A stretch of 64,000 nucleotides of DNA from Thermofilaceae archaeon (GCA_038861545.1 JAWCCZ010000001.1:224001-288000); one strand, 5' to 3'; numbered from the stretch's first letter, positions 43,511-51,414 are shown. Notes: a model not told the origin generated them from the sequence alone. Made by a program: numbers and translations.

Positions 43511-44686
43511 TTAACGGATTACCAACTCGCTATTTAATGTCTTAAGGTTTAATGATTGAAGTGTCTTCCCGCCTAGCCTGCGCACGAAAGCTAATAAATC
43601 CTGGTATGCAATAATCTTGGATTTCTGCCTGAGGTTTGGAGGGCCGGGGCGCTTCATATAGAAAGCATTAATTTCAGGCACGGTTCCATAGATTCCGGAT
43701 TTCAGCGAAACGTAGGCTAGCCTTGCAAGGTCTACCATGTAGCCAGCGAGCGCTGGGCTATCATTAATCCTCATATTAACTGTCAACTCGTCCGTGAAAC
43801 CGCCAAAGGTAATCCATTGGACGTGCATAGCGACGAATTTCTTGTCTCCCAGCGGCTCGAGGTAACCAGTTGGCTTGATAAAATGAGGCGGGTCATAGCC
43901 AAGTACATCATCGAAAAAACTGCTTTTAGTTTCCTCTTTAGCCTTGTTCCTATCCGGTTCTATAAGGGATAGGAAATCACTATTTCCTCCAATGTTGAAC
44001 TGTGCAACTGATAGCACTTTGCGACCTCTTTCCGCTAAATGTTCTACAACGTCGATCGTTAAAGGCGTCGCACCTGTAGCACCATCGTCACCCAGCACTA
44101 GTGATTCAGATTTAAGCGCTTTATCGACGAAAGCTGGACTACACGCCACATGCGCAGGCTGTAGGTTCACATGGGCTACACCACCTTGCTTCAAAGTCAG
44201 ATAAGCGTAGACTTGGGGATGGGGTAGCAGGCCCTTCAGTGCGGCTTCCTCAACTTCGTCCCAAATGTAAAGTGGGCTTGTTCGTGCTGTAGTGGTGACA
44301 TCTATTACCACATCGGGTTTAGCATCGTCAAGGAATTCCTCAAACTTTGTCAATGCTTCCTCAAGAGAATACCCCTCATCTAGCGCTCTCGTTTTAACAT
44401 GGGAGGGGGTGCTATTCAGCTTTAAACCGGGAGCTACTGTAACACTTTTTAACTCAGGCTCAGGCTTAAGACCATATCTCTCAACTACCTCGTATAGGCT
44501 CCTCCCTACTTTTCCGGCGTCAACATCCACACTGGCTACAACCTCTAATTCTTCAATAGGTATACCGAAGTCAACTTTTGCTAAGGGAATCCCCCATGGC
44601 TCCATTAACCCCTTCTTCAATCTAGCTAAACCCCAAGCGAAAACCGAAGCCGCGTATCCCTGCCCCAGTAGTAAGACCCGTACCAT
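43511..44686 (-). CDS. ino1: myo-Inositol-1-phosphate synthase
   Basis: GDDGATGAT, QFNIGGNSDF, LGDKKF and INDSPALAG motifs. Confidence 0.92.
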   Translation of the reverse strand: MVRVLLLGQGYAASVFAWGLARLKKGLMEPWGIPLAKVDFGIPIEELEVVASVDVDAGKVGRSLYEVVERYGLKPEPELKSVTVAPGLKLNSTPSHVKTRALDEGYSLEEALTKFEEFLDDAKPDVVIDVTTTARTSPLYIWDEVEEAALKGLLPHPQVYAYLTLKQGGVAHVNLQPAHVACSPAFVDKALKSESLVLGDDGATGATPLTIDVVEHLAERGRKVLSVAQFNIGGNSDFLSLIEPDRNKAKEETKSSFFDDVLGYDPPHFIKPTGYLEPLGDKKFVAMHVQWITFGGFTDELTVNMRINDSPALAGYMVDLARLAYVSLKSGIYGTVPEINAFYMKRPGPPNLRQKSKIIAYQDLLAFVRRLGGKTLQSLNLKTLNSELVIR

Positions 44687-44806
44687 GGTTATCTAATGAG
44701 TATTAGATATCTTATAATTATAAGCTTTTCCCCGGATGAATCCTATACAGGCAAAGAGGTAAAGCTAACAGGAGAAGAAAGGGCTGACTTGGAGCGATGA
44801 CGTGCG

Positions 44807-45178
44807 TTAGCGAGTAAGCAAAGTCATTTTCTCTAACCTGGTGACCAGCTCCTTCAGATGCGCTATACCATCGGCCAATAGATTTTTACCTTTATCTGTC
44901 AGCCTGTAGTATCTCCTACGTTCACTCCAGTAGCTTTCAACAAAACCCTCGTTTTCCAGTTTGTTTAAGACGACGTAAGGCAACACTTTCCCGGGGTTAA
45001 ACCCGAAGTCATCCTCAATGGCTTTAGCCACCTCGTAGGGGTAGCTATCGTTCCTGCTGAGTTCAGCGAGTACATATAACCATAGGTTCTCAACTCCGGT
45101 TTTTCTCTTTAGCCTACCTAATGGTTTGGGATCGCTCACATTTACAGGTGAAATCACGCTGCAAAAAAGATAGCGCAC
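44807..45178 (-). CDS. PadR-family transcription regulator
   Basis: LWLYVL, YPYE, YVVLNKLENEG and RRYYRLTDKG motifs. True start possibly GTG 45139. Confidence 0.85.
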   Translation of the reverse strand: MRYLFCSVISPVNVSDPKPLGRLKRKTGVENLWLYVLAELSRNDSYPYEVAKAIEDDFGFNPGKVLPYVVLNKLENEGFVESYWSERRRYYRLTDKGKNLLADGIAHLKELVTRLEKMTLLTR

Positions 45179-45208
45179 AGATAAATAGTACCTGTAATTC
45201 GTTTCAAT

Positions 45209-45997
45209 GTGAAACTTGCTATTCAGGAAAATCTTCTTAAGGGGGATAGCTTGGCCGAACGCCTAGCATTAGCCGAGAGACTGGGTTTTGAAGGCGTAGA
45301 GTTCTGGGGATCCGGTCTGCGAGAAAAGTTAGCCGAGGTTAAGCAAATTCTCTCCACAACTAAGGTTAAAGCTTCCACCGTCTGTTCAGGATACAGGGGA
45401 GATCTCCTTTCAGCAAGCAAGGAGGAAAGACTGCTTGCAATGCATGACATCGAGGTGTTGCTAGAGATCGCTGCCGAACTTGATGCGGTAGGGCTTATCG
45501 TTGTACCCACGTTCAGTGGGCCAAAGTTGCCAGATCTTAGCCCATTGTATCCGGATGTGTGGCATCTTGAGCGGGAGTTACTTATACATGTGCTCAAAAA
45601 CCTAGCTCGAAAAGCTGAGGATACCGGTGCAAGTATATTAATAGAACCTCTAAATAGATATGAAACCCACTTCCTAAATAGGCTTGATCAGGCTATAAAG
45701 ATCGCAGAAGAAGTTGGATCGCCGGGCGTTGCCGTTATGGCTGACTTTTTCCACATGAACATTGAGGAAGCAAATATTGCAGGGTCTCTGAGGAGTGCGC
45801 TGAAGCATTTGAGGCATATTCACTTAGCGGACAGCAATCGCTGGCTACCCGGTTTCGGGCACTCAGATTTCCGAGAACCTTTTAAGGTCTTAAGGGAAGG
45901 AGGGTACAGGTACTACATGGCGATGGAGTGTCACGTACCGGAGCCAAAGGAGGAAAGTTTAGCTAAAAGCGTGAAATACCTTAGATCCCTAATTTAA
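45209..45997 (+). CDS. Sugar phosphate isomerase/epimerase (AP endonuclease 2 TIM barrel)
   Basis: EPLNRYE, DFFHMNIEE, HIHLADSNR..PG.G and ME motifs. Confidence 0.88.
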   Translation: MKLAIQENLLKGDSLAERLALAERLGFEGVEFWGSGLREKLAEVKQILSTTKVKASTVCSGYRGDLLSASKEERLLAMHDIEVLLEIAAELDAVGLIVVPTFSGPKLPDLSPLYPDVWHLERELLIHVLKNLARKAEDTGASILIEPLNRYETHFLNRLDQAIKIAEEVGSPGVAVMADFFHMNIEEANIAGSLRSALKHLRHIHLADSNRWLPGFGHSDFREPFKVLREGGYRYYMAMECHVPEPKEESLAKSVKYLRSLI

Positions 45998-46059
45998 TAC
46001 AGTTTAGTTTGTAAACAGTAAATTTTATATTTCTTTTTAAACTTTCAAGCAGGGGCATA

Positions 46060-47253
46060 GTGATCAAATGTTGGAAACTTGCTGTAGCTTTTCTACTATT
46101 TGCAGCATTATCCTACATAGTGTTTACCGCCATACTGCGTGTTTTCTTGTTATCCTTTTCAAAGGAACCCGAAATTCCGCCTCAAGAAGGGATTCAAACC
46201 CCAAGAGCTGGAGACGCTATTGCTATAATGATGGAGTATGGAGCGAATTGTTTTCGTCTTAGGTTGTTTGTCGACCCTAATCCGCGTGATGAGTGGGGCG
46301 GGTTTACCGGTAATAACCTGGAGTATACAGTGAGGTTAGCTAAGAGGATTAAAGCTGCTGAAGCGAAGCTAGTACTCGACCCGCATTACTCGGATACCTG
46401 GGCGGACCCGGGGAAGCAATACACTCCCAAGTCATGGCTGAATTTAGGTTTTGAACAGCTTGTCGATAAGGTTTACGAGTACACGCACGATACCATTACT
46501 GCTTTTAATGATGAGGGAGCTTTACCCGACATGGTGCAGATAGGCAATGAGATAACCTGTGGGTTTTTATGGCCTGAAGGTAAGGTATGTGATGTTGAAA
46601 ACCCTCAAGAGCAGTGGAGTAAGTTTGCCACTCTGCTTAAAGCCGCTATAAAAGGCGTAAAAGACGCTCCTGGAGGGGGTAACATTCAGGTAATTCTACA
46701 TATTCACCCTGGAGGTAGCTGGGAAACTACCGATTGGTTTTTTTCGAACTTGGAGGATCAAGGTGTGCCATACAACATTATCGGTTTAAGTTACTATCCG
46801 ATTTGGCATGGTTCATTAACAGATCTCAAAAAAAATCTTGTGAATACGGCTAATAAATTCAACAAAGAGATTTTCATTGTCGAAACTGGGTACCCCTATC
46901 AACAAATCAACTTTGGTCAGCTAGAAGAAACCGGTTCTCGATACATGACTTGGCCGCGGACGCCCGAAGGGCAGGCCCAGTTCATCACAGATGTTATACA
47001 AGCAGTATATGAAACACCCAATCGAAAAGGCATGGGTGTTCTTTGGTGGTACCCGGAGGCGATTCCAGTTAAAGAGTTAACCGTGTTAAACGCTACAGCG
47101 CTTTTTGATGAAAAAGGCCGAGCTTTACCGGCTTTAAAGGTTTTCAAAGAATTCCGTAAAAGATTGAGTTCGGAGTTCCTGCTTGGTGGCGATATATCTG
47201 CCCTGGGCGAAATCGAAAGATTGGGTGGAGTTTACTTGAGCGGAAGTGGGTAG
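46060..47253 (+). CDS. Membrane-anchored GH53 endo-beta-1,4-galactanase, apparently circularly permuted
   Basis: RLRLFVDP, HYSDTWADPGKQ, QIGNE (acid/base), SYYP and ETGYP (nucleophile). The GGDIS strand is at the C-terminus. Confidence 0.9.
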   Translation: MIKCWKLAVAFLLFAALSYIVFTAILRVFLLSFSKEPEIPPQEGIQTPRAGDAIAIMMEYGANCFRLRLFVDPNPRDEWGGFTGNNLEYTVRLAKRIKAAEAKLVLDPHYSDTWADPGKQYTPKSWLNLGFEQLVDKVYEYTHDTITAFNDEGALPDMVQIGNEITCGFLWPEGKVCDVENPQEQWSKFATLLKAAIKGVKDAPGGGNIQVILHIHPGGSWETTDWFFSNLEDQGVPYNIIGLSYYPIWHGSLTDLKKNLVNTANKFNKEIFIVETGYPYQQINFGQLEETGSRYMTWPRTPEGQAQFITDVIQAVYETPNRKGMGVLWWYPEAIPVKELTVLNATALFDEKGRALPALKVFKEFRKRLSSEFLLGGDISALGEIERLGGVYLSGSG

Positions 47254-47637
47254 CTTTTTTAGAAGAGGTACTCCGAGTCCTCCTTTATAGATCTAATAGC
47301 ATTTAGAACTGGCACTCGAACAAACCATCCGCATCTCCATGTACAGCTCCTCAAGTACCTGTACTTCACTATGCATAGTTAGCTCGCTAGTTAAGCGCCG
47401 CCTTACGTTTGAGAAGGTTGCAACTCAAAGGTAAACCTACTCGCCGCGCCTTTCAGCAGTCTAAGCTCACTTCTACTCAGGAAAGGCTCAGCAGCATATA
47501 GACTCCAACTCGCGACTCGATTACGCTGACGAGCTAGCCTCTAAAGGGAAAACTCTATCTGCTATAGACGCCGGCTCAGAATTCGGGACAAGGTATTATG
47601 ATATTTTCATATCCCAAGTATCCCAGGTATTACAGTT

Positions 47638-47893
47638 ATGTTCACATCGCTTGTAAAGAATGTATCGAGGATATTGCGAGAGCTTAGAAAGCTAAAGTTG
47701 AACTAAGCTGCAGAACTTAGGCCGAGCTTCTAGAAAAGCCAGTCAGGTCTAGAGGGAGTAGAAGATAAGGTGAGAAAAGCACGGAAAGGTTTCTGAAGTT
47801 AAGAGAGGGGTAACAGCTAAGTGGAGCGGAAAGACTGTACTAGAGGAGTTAGCCAGGCTGCATGAAGCTGAGAGCTCTGACTCTCGCCGCTAA
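47638..47893 (+). pseudogene. Decayed small antitoxin-like gene
   Basis: Across frames: LRELRKLK/VELSCRT*AELLEK...FLKLREG/VTAKWSGKTVLEELARLHE, recalling archaeal VapB-type partners of PIN toxins. Confidence 0.4.
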
Positions 47894-48312
47894 AATCCTT
47901 TGTAACTGTTTTGAAAACTGACGAAAGGTATAATGACAGGCGCGCCGGGGCCTCTGCAAGCTTTCAGGAAGTACATGTATGATCAGCAAAGCCGTACCAT
48001 TTACCTCGCAAGCCGGTGCAGGTAGCACCATTATTATGCCACCAGTCAAGCTGATCAAGGAGGGTTAACTTTCTATTACTGTCGTGCATTTCATAGATTC
48101 GCTACGCGATGGTTGGCGACCCGAAGTGGGCGGATAGCTCTCCCAGACGTACTACCCATAAAGGGTATACGTACATGCAGGAAGAATTCTTTCCACCTAA
48201 TGACACCACTGTTTTTCACCGGTTCTACAACGTTTTCTACTACTGTGGTGAGCGCAGACGCTAGGAAAGTACACCGTGACAGTAATATAGATGGGTTTAC
48301 ATTATTGATCTT

Positions 48313-49116
48313 GTGAACTCCGGCAAAAGGGTTAGGTTAGCTAGAATTTTTAGGAGAGGTAGAGCATTGATCCTAGCGATAGACCATGGTTTGAAGGTGG
48401 GTCCACTTAGGGGGATTGAAAACCCAAGGAAGGTAGCTGAATTAGCAGTTGCAGAGGAAGTAGACGCGATAATGGCAACTCCTCCTATTATCGAATATAT
48501 ATCGGACTTTCTATCAGACCTCTATGCTATCGCACGGGTCGACGGCGGAGCGACGTCAATAGGTCCCAATATCACCAATGATATCACTTTATTTACAATT
48601 GAGGAGGCTATCAATGTAGGGGCAGATGCGGTTGTCGCTTTTGGTTACATGGGTATAGAAAAGGAGAGTGTGCAAATTAAGAAACTTTCGCAGGTAGCTA
48701 GCGAATGCAAAAGATTAGGTATACCTCTAATCGCTGAGATGCTACCAGTAGACCTAGTTAAACACCATTTCTCAGGAGGAGATCGTAACTTGAACCCGGA
48801 GAGCATAGCACTGGCTGCTCGAGTTGGATGGGAAGTAGGTGCCGATGCTGTAAAAACATACTACACAGGCGACCCTGAAACTTTTAAACGGGTTGTCAAT
48901 TCATGCCCGATACCGATACTAGTATTGGGAGGGCCTCCAGTTGAGGATTTCGTTGCTTTTCTGGAACAGATCGAAAGTGCCCTTAAAACTGGTGCACAAG
49001 GGGTAATTGTAGGTCGGAATATTTGGCAACATCCGACTCCCAGGCAAGCCCTCAAAGCTCTCAGTAAAGTTGTACACGAGGGTTGCATCGCCAAGGAGGC
49101 TGTAGGGAAAGCATAA
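48313..49116 (+). CDS. Class I (DhnA/LsrF-type) aldolase
   Basis: AIDHG, GADAVKTYY Schiff-base Lys, LGGP and GRNIWQ motifs. Confidence 0.9.
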   Translation: MNSGKRVRLARIFRRGRALILAIDHGLKVGPLRGIENPRKVAELAVAEEVDAIMATPPIIEYISDFLSDLYAIARVDGGATSIGPNITNDITLFTIEEAINVGADAVVAFGYMGIEKESVQIKKLSQVASECKRLGIPLIAEMLPVDLVKHHFSGGDRNLNPESIALAARVGWEVGADAVKTYYTGDPETFKRVVNSCPIPILVLGGPPVEDFVAFLEQIESALKTGAQGVIVGRNIWQHPTPRQALKALSKVVHEGCIAKEAVGKA

Positions 49117-49269
49117 AATACTTTTCCCTATGCAAGGTTGCCATTATTCAATGCAGTACTAATTGATTGCCTAGGGCAAAAGCATTTTTAGTAATTGATC
49201 TACCTCATAATACACTTATATCAACGCTATTCTTAAAGTTGAGCTAGGGTTTGGTCTTAGCGATACGCT

Positions 49270-51414
49270 ATGGTCTTATCGAAAGAGTTCGTTAGCAAAC
49301 TTCTCGATTTACAAAGACCTGAAGAGCTAATGCTTCCGATAGAACCCAGAGTAGATCATGCTGATCACATGGTAAAAACCGCTTTACTTGGCTGGAGTGA
49401 GCTGGCCGCTGATCATATATTACATTTCGAGGTTAGTGACAAGCTTCCTGCGCTGATATCTTCTCTAGTTAGGAAGTCAGAGATCTTACTCAGGACGCAC
49501 ACCATAGCAGATGCTCAGGAGGAGGTCCTTAGGGATCGTGTTGCCTGTAGGGTCAGAATCTATGACATGTTAATTGAAACAGCATTAAACTTAGCTGGCT
49601 GTGAGTCTGATTGGGCTTACCTTGAACCTTTATTTGTTGACAAAGCTTTGAGCAACATAGTAGGTGCATTTAAGGAATGGGAAAAGCTCGAGGAGCGTGA
49701 ATTAGGAGGAATCTTTGTTTTAGAGACAGTAGTTGAACGCAAGCTTAGAAAGATGGAGAAAGTGAACAAGGGTAATAGCCTCGTTGCAGCTATAGCTAAG
49801 CTGGTGCGTGAGCGATTAGAGCCAGGCAATTTAGCAGCAAGCTTTATAGAGTCCATGGCTGAGTGCATTCGAGGTAGCTTTTATCGACGTGCATACGAGC
49901 AAGGTTTATGCAAGTTTGGCAACGACTATGCATTAGGCCTCCGTTTCCTTAGACATCTCGGTTTCGTTCAAGTGTCGACAAACCCATTGCTTGCTGCACG
50001 TGCTTACGACGATGAACCTGAGCTTTGGCGAGGTTTCGAGGAGTATACTCGTAGAGTACTAGTTGTAGAACATCCAGAATGGTTTAATGATCCAGAAAAC
50101 CACTTGGATGAGTTAGCGATGGAGGCGACTAGATATGCTCTAATGGATAACTTTTACGTGTTCCGAGTCCCCTTTATACTCTCAGGTTATCATGACGGGT
50201 TAGTCAGCTATCAGCTGAATCCGTTGATAGCTCACGACGCTGAAAGAAGCGTTGAAGCCGTAAAGGTCTTTGCTAACCGCCTTGAAAGGGATTTGAAGGT
50301 GTACGACGAGTATCTATGGTGGGGATATAACGTATCTGAAAAAGGTAGACCCAACCTGGTAGTAAAGGTAGCAGCTGCTTATCCCGCGGCAATAGAAATA
50401 GTAGAAAAAATTAACGAAATGGGTATAGGGCAGAACATTACTCTAAGCTACACGGTTAGTCAAGAGGTGCTTTTAGGTGTCTCGGCGCTAAAGGGGATGG
50501 GCAAGGCCATTAGTAAAGGCCTGTTACCCACTCAGACTTATAACACCAATATGTCCGGCAGGCTGGAAGATCACCTTAGGGAAGTTGCAGCAACCGACTT
50601 GCTACTGAAAGGGCTAGCTCAACTAAGTTGGGAGGAGCGCTGGGCTATACTTGACGAACTTGCTTCAAAACTGGGGGTAAAGCCTGAGGAGTGGAGTAAT
50701 GCGAAAAGCCAGGGTATAAAAACCGCCGTCGAATTTCTATGCAGCACTAGAGTGCTGGGCAGAAACATGACAGACGCTCGATTTCTCCAAGCACTCGCAA
50801 AAACTAATGTTTTTGCGTCAGAAGAAAATATGGTAAGACAGGTCTCAGAGTTAGAAGAAGCGATTAAATTGTCGGGAACTCTTATAGCAAAGCGGGTTTA
50901 CGAGATCTTTTTTGCTCCATGGAATCGAAGTAGATGGATAGAGTACCTTGTTAAGGAAGTAGGCATTGATGAAGAGGATGCAGAGATAGTCTTAGATAGA
51001 CTGGATCTCCTGCCAGCTTCAAAAAGGAAACCGGCTGATACGCTACTCACCTTTTCCTCAAGAAATGTAACCAATACCGAGTTCCCTGATCATCAGTTAA
51101 ACGTTGAAAGAGTTGCTAAGGATATTCGGTTTGATGATATTTGTGAATCTATATTGAAACCGGTAGAGGAAAGGCACATCGGTTTACTGCGTAAAATTCC
51201 GGATTTCGTGAGGGCTTATGAGGCTTCGCCCGAAGTTAATGAATTGCTACACAAAGTTGGCATAAAAGGTGATTATGGTAGCAATGGTATAAGTCCTGCT
51301 GATTGGCCATCATACGGTCCCTGCTTGAAGACCCTGAATGAATTCACCTACGCCTATACATCGTTTAGGTGGAGAGTGGCCCAGTTAGCTAAAAGTATAG
51401 GTAAGAGTGGCTGA
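49270..51414 (+). CDS. Transaldolase-family protein with a long N-terminal extension
   Basis: GND, VSTNP, NLVVKV (Schiff-base Lys), NITLSYTVSQ and GRLED motifs; 714 aa. Confidence 0.75.
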   Translation: MVLSKEFVSKLLDLQRPEELMLPIEPRVDHADHMVKTALLGWSELAADHILHFEVSDKLPALISSLVRKSEILLRTHTIADAQEEVLRDRVACRVRIYDMLIETALNLAGCESDWAYLEPLFVDKALSNIVGAFKEWEKLEERELGGIFVLETVVERKLRKMEKVNKGNSLVAAIAKLVRERLEPGNLAASFIESMAECIRGSFYRRAYEQGLCKFGNDYALGLRFLRHLGFVQVSTNPLLAARAYDDEPELWRGFEEYTRRVLVVEHPEWFNDPENHLDELAMEATRYALMDNFYVFRVPFILSGYHDGLVSYQLNPLIAHDAERSVEAVKVFANRLERDLKVYDEYLWWGYNVSEKGRPNLVVKVAAAYPAAIEIVEKINEMGIGQNITLSYTVSQEVLLGVSALKGMGKAISKGLLPTQTYNTNMSGRLEDHLREVAATDLLLKGLAQLSWEERWAILDELASKLGVKPEEWSNAKSQGIKTAVEFLCSTRVLGRNMTDARFLQALAKTNVFASEENMVRQVSELEEAIKLSGTLIAKRVYEIFFAPWNRSRWIEYLVKEVGIDEEDAEIVLDRLDLLPASKRKPADTLLTFSSRNVTNTEFPDHQLNVERVAKDIRFDDICESILKPVEERHIGLLRKIPDFVRAYEASPEVNELLHKVGIKGDYGSNGISPADWPSYGPCLKTLNEFTYAYTSFRWRVAQLAKSIGKSG

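Follow-up and report, generated by a model that had tools for sequence, protein, structure and literature searches.

Evidence for a natural circular permutation of the GH53 galactanase barrel in Thermofilaceae

A GH53 open reading frame and the order of its parts

The stretch analysed here (hereafter the window) comprises 64,000 nucleotides from a Thermofilaceae archaeon (GCA_038861545.1 JAWCCZ010000001.1:224001-288000), and on its plus strand, on which the ORF and all its parts lie, positions 46060-47253 hold an open reading frame (ORF) of 397 amino acids with a GTG start at 46060 and a stop codon at 47251-47253. The encoded protein (P0001) belongs to glycoside hydrolase family 53 (GH53), and the first strand and helix of its (beta/alpha)8 barrel (beta1-alpha1) stand behind the normal C-terminus of the family. 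This order of parts, first noticed in an original prediction made from the sequence alone, is confirmed.

The protein starts with a hydrophobic helix, a probable signal-anchor (46060..46158; residues 1-33, helix 2-33 in the AlphaFold2 model), followed by a probably disordered linker (46159..46209; residues 34-50), in which the predicted local distance difference test score (pLDDT) of the model is below 50 at residues 35-50; the transmembrane anchor and linker that the original prediction placed ahead of the catalytic domain are thus recovered. The catalytic domain then opens with DAIAIMMEYGANCFRLRLF, and the GH53 core runs from the helix before beta2 to alpha8, with seven of the eight strands (46210..47148; residues 51-363). 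The stop-to-stop frame amounts to just 412 codons, 15 of which lie upstream of the GTG, so nothing is hidden upstream of the ORF. Past the usual GH53 end, ALFDEKGRALPALKVF, the frame continues for 34 more residues. They comprise the junction linker from the old C-terminus (alpha8) to the relocated beta1 (47149..47172; residues 364-371), the relocated beta1-alpha1 itself, EFLLGGDISALGEIERLGGVY (47173..47235; residues 372-392, canonical profile positions 2-24), and the final five residues with the stop codon (47236..47253), where the chain ends at what is a hairpin turn in canonical GH53 proteins. The tails of relatives finish with FRDDGDP or FRDTGDA, and their canonical counterpart reads FRDDGRP and then DDA.

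GH53 enzymes, like the rest of clan GH-A, carry the acid/base after beta4 and the nucleophile after beta7 and act by a retaining mechanism. Both catalytic glutamates are kept, as the original prediction had it: Glu164 of the GNE motif (46549..46551), the predicted acid/base, aligns to E135 of 1hjs_A, and Glu275 of the VETG motif (46882..46884), the predicted nucleophile, to E245 of the same chain, and both are invariant in the 21 permuted sequences of alignment A1. On the cell surface, the anchored form would be expected to cleave beta-1,4-galactan (pectic galactan, type I arabinogalactan); the literature searched yielded no characterised enzyme from the permuted clade.

The swapped order is seen at the level of profiles. 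The Pfam profile PF07745 aligns its positions 26-340 of 340 with residues 50-362 (304.1 bits against a cut-off of 24), and its positions 1-25, which correspond to beta1-alpha1, have no N-terminal counterpart in the ORF. Two hits to PF07745 in swapped order had been anticipated; Pfam hmmscan lists a single stretch, the 21-residue tail being too short to be listed, hence the use of a custom profile of 92 retrieved canonical GH53 domains, which does return the expected pair. Specifically, custom positions 27-339 match residues 49-365 and positions 2-24 match residues 372-394, the second match with an independent E of 8.7e-6, whereas each of two canonical controls gives one match, over positions 1-338. 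All permuted proteins give two such matches, in swapped order and with no gap or overlap; since the two pieces abut in profile coordinates, the cut is clean and represents neither a duplication nor a partial loss. Moreover, canonical relatives searched by tblastn against positions 44000-50000 produce two swapped matches each, the core at 46204-47163 and the N-terminal ~22 residues at 47173-47241 (E 2e-6 to 2e-4 for the latter), as exemplified by P0024, whose residues 81-398 map to 46204-47163 and residues 56-78 to 47173-47241. No further GH53 match or remnant, upstream or downstream, was found by tblastn in 44000-50000. A homology search with residues 338-397 alone returned just the window protein itself.

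The arrangement recurs in relatives, where the original prediction proposed to look for it. The GGD[IV]S motif lies behind the RLR motif, not ahead of it, in 21 of the best 120 homologs. When the custom profile is applied to the 330 proteins retrieved in all searches, 26 have the core followed by the N-terminal piece, 232 are canonical and ~50 are tandem two-domain proteins; the 26 are the window protein and 25 other proteins or fragments from independent assemblies, these latter with 51-74% identity. The source names given for the permuted proteins are Thermofilum sp., Thermofilaceae archaeon, Infirmifilum sp. and Candidatus Bathyarchaeia archaeon, and their identity to the window protein is 51-62%. 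In alignment A1, the tail positions G376, D378, S380, L382, E386 and G389 are invariant, and the mean column conservation of the tail (0.78) stands beside a core median of 0.74, with 0.40 for the anchor, 0.20 for the linker and 0.48 for the junction. The permuted order is a heritable trait kept under constraint and no isolated case. Five genomes of the same order carry permuted genes (G000, the same-genus G020, G029 with two copies, G038 and G039), and across 401 sampled genomes of the phylum the sole other close match is a canonical, N-terminally anchored protein in G061 (P0033); three more distant matches in the same sample are large canonical enzymes with a C-terminal anchor, of the type of the solved Ignisphaera structure (L092-L094). 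A library of representatives at 50% identity showed no second independent permuted lineage, and in it the permuted clade is reduced to one full-length match, P0002, and fragments.

Taken together, these data are best read as a natural circular permutation of the GH53 (beta/alpha)8 barrel, in a protein that would be a retaining endo-beta-1,4-galactanase, to which a probability of about 0.9 is assigned.

Tandem paralogs and the assembly of the locus

A collapsed tandem duplication had been named in the original prediction as a possible source of the odd order. Such a collapse has probably occurred, inside the core (46213-46658) and not at the tail junction, and the permuted order is unaffected by it. 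The comparison starts from G029 (Thermofilaceae archaeon SKYB99, L002 2634-5046), which carries, between the same neighbours, a tandem pair of permuted genes: an anchored gene A (P0010), a 79-nucleotide spacer and a leaderless gene B (P0273), whose GTG start directly precedes DAIRIL, at the first helix of the domain. The lack of a leader in P0273 implies an enzyme that would be cytoplasmic or exported piggy-back. Against these two types the window protein is a mosaic. At its N-terminus it shares 52% identity with the A-type protein of G020, and B-type proteins lack a counterpart of this part; residues 1-107 and 151-200 are nearest to the A type (80-92% identity vs 73-78% to B), residues 151-200 alone giving 90-92% vs 78%, while residues 116-150 and 201-362 are nearest to the B type (67-81% vs 31-65% to A), residues 116-150 alone giving 71% vs 43-49%, with the result that the segments alternate A, A, B, A, B.

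The same locus is ambiguous in the assembly graphs. Eight hot-spring metagenome runs from two studies contain the stretch, and the Logan contigs of four of them (X1, X2, X4 and X6) were placed on 46000-47600. Two segments appear to be present twice per genome. The first (46213..46380), a Logan unitig of ~2x depth, is apparently identical in A and B and forms one anchor of the collapse; it is followed by a paralog-divergent segment (46381..46508), in which the window has the B-type version and P0270 the A-type version, and by the second twice-per-genome stretch (46509..46658), also of raised depth, in which a contig of 720 nucleotides starts. This contig begins with 46629-46658 and ends with 46213-46242, and thus forms a loop. 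In X1 the depths are 13.6 upstream, 25.6 over 46213-46380, 26.3 over 46509-46658, 14.2 in the loop contig and 12.3 downstream, and in X2, in the same order, 13.9, 31.7, 22.6, 13.6 and 14.4. Such a loop, with depths of 1:2:2:1:1, is what two tandem copies with two identical stretches in common characteristically give. In the A-B pair of G029, 663 nucleotides separate the counterpart of 46658 in gene A from that of 46213 in gene B, against 660 in the loop contig. Furthermore, in X4 the 30 nucleotides ahead of 46213 differ from the linker of the window and end in GTG, like the leaderless B of G029, and a contig of X6 joins the region upstream of the ORF and its N-terminal anchor to a diverged 46404-46508 (105 nucleotides), the shared stretch and then, past 46658, an A-type C-terminal part (VKEGSGNESV) in place of that of the window.

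An origin of the loop contig in the species of G029 or G020 was considered and rejected: two of its 30-mers are absent from both genomes, the longest exact matches being 14 and 26 nucleotides, which places the loop in the population of the window itself.

The real locus probably reads isomerase, A, B, spacer, aldolase, with the loop skipped by the assembler and the ORF a chimera of A and B. The ORF would then join the anchor and 5' core of A to the 3' core and tail of B, and the two identical stretches would have been made alike by gene conversion between the paralogs. A and B, kept alike in this way, may work as a pair. The collapse does not create the permuted order, since both parental paralog types are permuted.

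Several observations weigh against a collapse: the 397-amino-acid form is found in five metagenome-assembled genomes (MAGs), in one of them on a contig of 1,003,844 bases; the 720-nucleotide contig is known by its length, end sequences and depth alone; short Logan unitigs have noisy depths (in X1, 46351-46538 stands at 8.1); and the same-genus G020 carries gene A alone. The rival reading is a genuine single gene, a natural A/B recombinant produced by unequal crossing-over or deletion and still permuted, which is possible but clearly less probable than a collapse. The long contig and the calling of the 397-amino-acid form or its near-twin P0270 in the five MAGs speak for it, as do the single gene at the locus in G020 and the one GH53 match in the genome of the window. 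However, the depth of the loop contig equals that of its flanks (14.2 vs 13.6/12.3 in X1; 13.6 vs 13.9/14.4 in X2), which means that the loop should be present in nearly all genome copies of X1 and X2. In addition, the MAGs differ in the branch of the bubble that they follow, as P0270 (397 amino acids, four other MAGs) departs from the window protein in residues ~108-150 only and is A-type there, and others break within the shared stretch, as do the contigs of P0271 and P0272 (two further MAGs), a pattern typical of an unresolved repeat. A chimera assembled from two tandem permuted genes is hence the preferred account of the ORF.

Predicted fold and the place of the tail

Two AlphaFold2 monomer predictions were made, each on a 21-sequence alignment of permuted proteins: the window protein P0001 (mean pLDDT 85.4, predicted template modelling score (pTM) 0.81) and the natural leaderless P0273 of 347 amino acids (pLDDT 92.3, pTM 0.92). 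In both models seven long strands belong to the core, predicted in P0001 at 64-70, 103-109, 158-161, 210-215, 240-245, 270-276 and 324-329, and the eighth comes from the tail. The original prediction had proposed the modelling to see whether the C-terminal strand completes the barrel, and the tail is indeed predicted as a confident strand and helix that supply the eighth strand, at residues 374-378 and 382-387 of P0001 (tail pLDDT 94/82 in 10-residue blocks) and at 324-328 and 332-337 of P0273 (95/90). As the DSSP 'strand' assignment needs a hydrogen bond to another strand, the tail would be packed into a sheet. The chain would enter the barrel at the helix before beta2, run from beta2 to alpha8 and, through the 8-residue linker, reach beta1-alpha1; to judge from secondary structure and confidence values, the tail would close the barrel beside beta2 and beta8. 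Isolated bridge residues at 51, the start of the domain, and at 392-393, the end of the tail, fit chain ends that re-form the cut hairpin in the P0001 model.

The P0001 model superposes on 7osk_A with Z 33.6 and a root-mean-square deviation (rmsd) of 2.1 over 298 residues (model range 49-367); the top 10 rows of the structure search are all GH53 chains (7osk to 6gp5), with 9 entries placed ahead of the best other family, and this next family follows at Z 21.8. One point tells against the use of this match for the permutation: structure aligners are sequential, so the superposition on 7osk covers the core and cannot show the tail on beta1.

Two other fates of the tail have to be weighed. In a domain-swapped dimer or oligomer, the tail beta1-alpha1 would insert into another subunit and complete its barrel; complementation in trans is possible for permuted or truncated barrels, the junction linker has a mere 8 residues and the predictions cover monomers only. 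Conversely, the monomer models give a confident tail strand (pLDDT 94-95) in one compact domain (pTM 0.92 for P0273), and the geometry of (beta/alpha)8 barrels brings the end of alpha8 to the face on which beta1 starts, for which a short linker is enough, so that a swap appears unlikely. The tail could otherwise be the non-functional remnant of a decayed downstream GH53 copy fused in frame, which would leave a seven-stranded or otherwise repaired barrel. Tandem GH53 genes do occur in the lineage, and 1.05 kb without an ORF lie 3' of the gene. However, the tail is conserved like the core over 21 clusters at ~55% identity, with six invariant residues, the N-terminal copy is missing from every permuted protein and tblastn detects no GH53 trace downstream (44000-50000), which makes a remnant very improbable.

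Lastly, a faulty assembly at 47150-47260, by a misjoin or by the collapse of a duplication, can be dismissed as the source of the swapped order in spite of the collapse indicated elsewhere in the same gene, as single contigs from four runs of the two studies bridge this interval, singled out for a check from the outset, with 0 differences (46629-47600 in X1 and X2, on a 10,224-nucleotide contig; 46509-47600 in X4; 46870-47600 in X6), and the same order is present in independent NCBI, JGI, ENA and Logan assemblies and in four other genomes of the order. A tail that completes its own barrel, in a permuted protein, is the reading retained below.

Origin, neighbourhood and known relatives

Trees were built on core columns alone, with the tail columns excluded. 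A branch with a Shimodaira-Hasegawa-like approximate likelihood ratio test (SH-aLRT) value of 87 in the 85-row tree separates the permuted proteins from the others; in the 48-row tree the permuted branch has an ultrafast bootstrap of 87 and an SH-aLRT of 52, and one change is reconstructed in 90% of bootstrap trees. With the canonical archaeal clade (P0033, P0034, P0023, P0024, P0020, P0026 and P0031) the permuted proteins share a joint support of 100/97, and the joint group is nested among canonical bacterial GH53s. A single origin of the permutation from a canonical, N-terminally anchored archaeal ancestor is favoured but not proven. The core of P0018, a basal permuted protein, is 67-70% identical to canonical proteins, which makes the permutation event young in sequence terms.

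In the basal members, the part of the tail that aligns with the canonical sisters begins slightly ahead of beta1 and extends as far as the turn of the next hairpin; specifically, the P0018 tail LEVAGAKKFLVGGDVSALAKIEAMGGVFRDDG matches residues 50-80 of P0024 at 21/32 positions, the residues ahead of beta1 included, and the basal junction VEVSGKE resembles the canonical pre-beta1 LEVAGAKK. At the other end, permuted N-termini resume at DAI..IM, and the canonical DA..I. stands directly past the same turn. In canonical GH53, alpha1 leads into a small hairpin, and the turn of this hairpin would be the cut site. The retention of pre-beta1 residues in the junction, a weak trace, fits an in-frame fusion of a second copy with later loss of the redundant parts, and tandem duplication, in-frame fusion and loss of redundant ends would be the most likely route. 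The permutation probably arose once in an archaeal lineage and would now be fixed in a small clade of Thermofilaceae and Bathyarchaeia; later, in Thermofilaceae, the permuted gene would have been duplicated into the anchored A type and the leaderless B type.

Two points temper this history. That the permuted proteins are monophyletic is favoured, though not with strong support (87/52), and none of the 330 retrieved proteins, among them those from a search seeded with the basal P0018, carries the N-terminal piece (beta1) at both ends, with the result that the duplication-deletion route is inferred only.

Some further features of these proteins deserve mention. An insertion in the beta2-alpha2 loop, the nearly invariant PRDEWGGFTGN, is present in most permuted members, including the window protein (residues 72-86, 46273-46317; A1 columns 101-115), where it is modelled at low confidence (pLDDT 63-77), and is absent from the basal permuted pair P0018/P0021, which has a short loop, and from the canonical sisters; it was gained after the permutation. 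P0213 (763 amino acids) has no beta1 next to its GH53 core, which starts at residue 369, and a weak beta1-alpha1-like match at 188-214 (E 0.48); this weakly suggests that an insertion of ~155 residues may occupy the hairpin at which the archaeal permuted chains are cut. These archaea also have a further GH53-like lineage, separate from the first and represented by L087, L088 and L089 (in G013, G019 and G030, of the same order), which are 29-30% identical, ~360-390 amino acids long and in canonical order, with a GVDANY first strand and no obvious anchor.

The genes around the ORF code for an inositol-1-phosphate synthase-like protein, a PadR-like protein and a xylose-isomerase-like triosephosphate isomerase (TIM) barrel on one side and a DhnA-type aldolase and a transaldolase-like protein on the other, with a major facilitator superfamily transporter three genes upstream; this is not a dedicated polysaccharide locus. 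The order of the xylose-isomerase-like gene (45209-45997), GH53, the DhnA-type aldolase and the long transaldolase-like gene (48313-51414) is kept in G020 and G029 at 59-79% translated identity, which suggests a functional sugar-metabolism neighbourhood. Between GH53 and the aldolase lies a spacer of 1.05 kb (47254-48312), single-copy in its own genome, with no ORF longer than 71 codons and no Rfam family, tRNA or Pfam match (the latter in six-frame pieces). The equivalent spacer measures ~90 nucleotides in G029 and ~180 in G020, and only the last ~45 nucleotides of the window spacer match G020; it may be an insertion remnant or a non-coding RNA.

To our knowledge, natural circular permutations of TIM barrels are few, and the best-known glycosidase case, GH70 relative to GH13, is old and tangled with domain rearrangements. 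No paper on a permuted GH53 was found in the open-access literature searched, and the case described here may well be the first natural circular permutation in GH53, possibly in clan GH-A, evolutionarily young and with a clean cut in one hairpin turn. A permuted clade beside canonical sisters of high identity allows the effect of chain order to be studied almost in isolation; if the permutation is true, the two forms would be a near-ideal natural pair for asking how strand order affects a hyperthermophilic TIM barrel in its folding, its stability and its anchoring in the membrane. In annotation, the permuted proteins appear in profile searches as N-terminally truncated GH53, which hides the tail. 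The locus probably also illustrates how tandem paralogs with gene-converted stretches come to be merged into a chimeric ORF, here deposited in at least five MAGs. The finding is useful to specialists in protein evolution and carbohydrate-active enzymes and reveals no new function.

Compared with the solved canonical GH53 enzymes (7OSK from Ignisphaera aggregans, 1R8L/1UR0 from Bacillus licheniformis and the fungal 1HJS/1FHL), the window protein shares PF07745 and the aligned GNE and ET motifs, with a sequence match to 7osk at E 8e-57, and its core superposes on them with Z 30-34 and rmsd 2.1-2.6. In contrast to all of them, its beta1-alpha1 stands behind alpha8 and not ahead of beta2, and the family members of the solved archaeal enzyme are large, C-terminally anchored and canonical in order. 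The canonical archaeal sisters (P0033, 'Nitrososphaerota archaeon', and P0024, P0023, P0020, P0026, P0031 and P0034) are nearest on the tree, have the same N-terminal membrane helix and reach 53-68% core identity to the permuted members; they differ in the order of their parts, namely anchor, linker, beta1-alpha1 and core, with one profile match over positions 1-338.

The Bacteroidota tandem GH53-GH53 fusions (P0053, P0055, P0060, P0064-P0072 and others; 650-680 amino acids) demonstrate that GH53 domains do undergo in-frame tandem duplication in nature, the postulated first step of the permutation. They differ in having two complete canonical domains with no truncation and in belonging to a distant clade, and are not ancestors of the archaeal permuted clade. 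Their first domains form one clade and their second domains another, which points to an old in-frame tandem duplication.

The closest parallel outside the family is found in the GH70 glucansucrases and GtfB, whose barrels are circular permutants of those of GH13 and of the non-permuted GtfC/GtfD (PMC9732880). As in GH70, a glycoside hydrolase TIM barrel is naturally permuted and permuted and non-permuted members coexist in one family. Unlike GH53, which belongs to clan GH-A, GH70 is a member of clan GH-H and has another cut site, and large rearrangements of domains accompany its permutation, with the forms of low identity to each other, whereas both GH53 forms are single-domain and share up to ~70% core identity.

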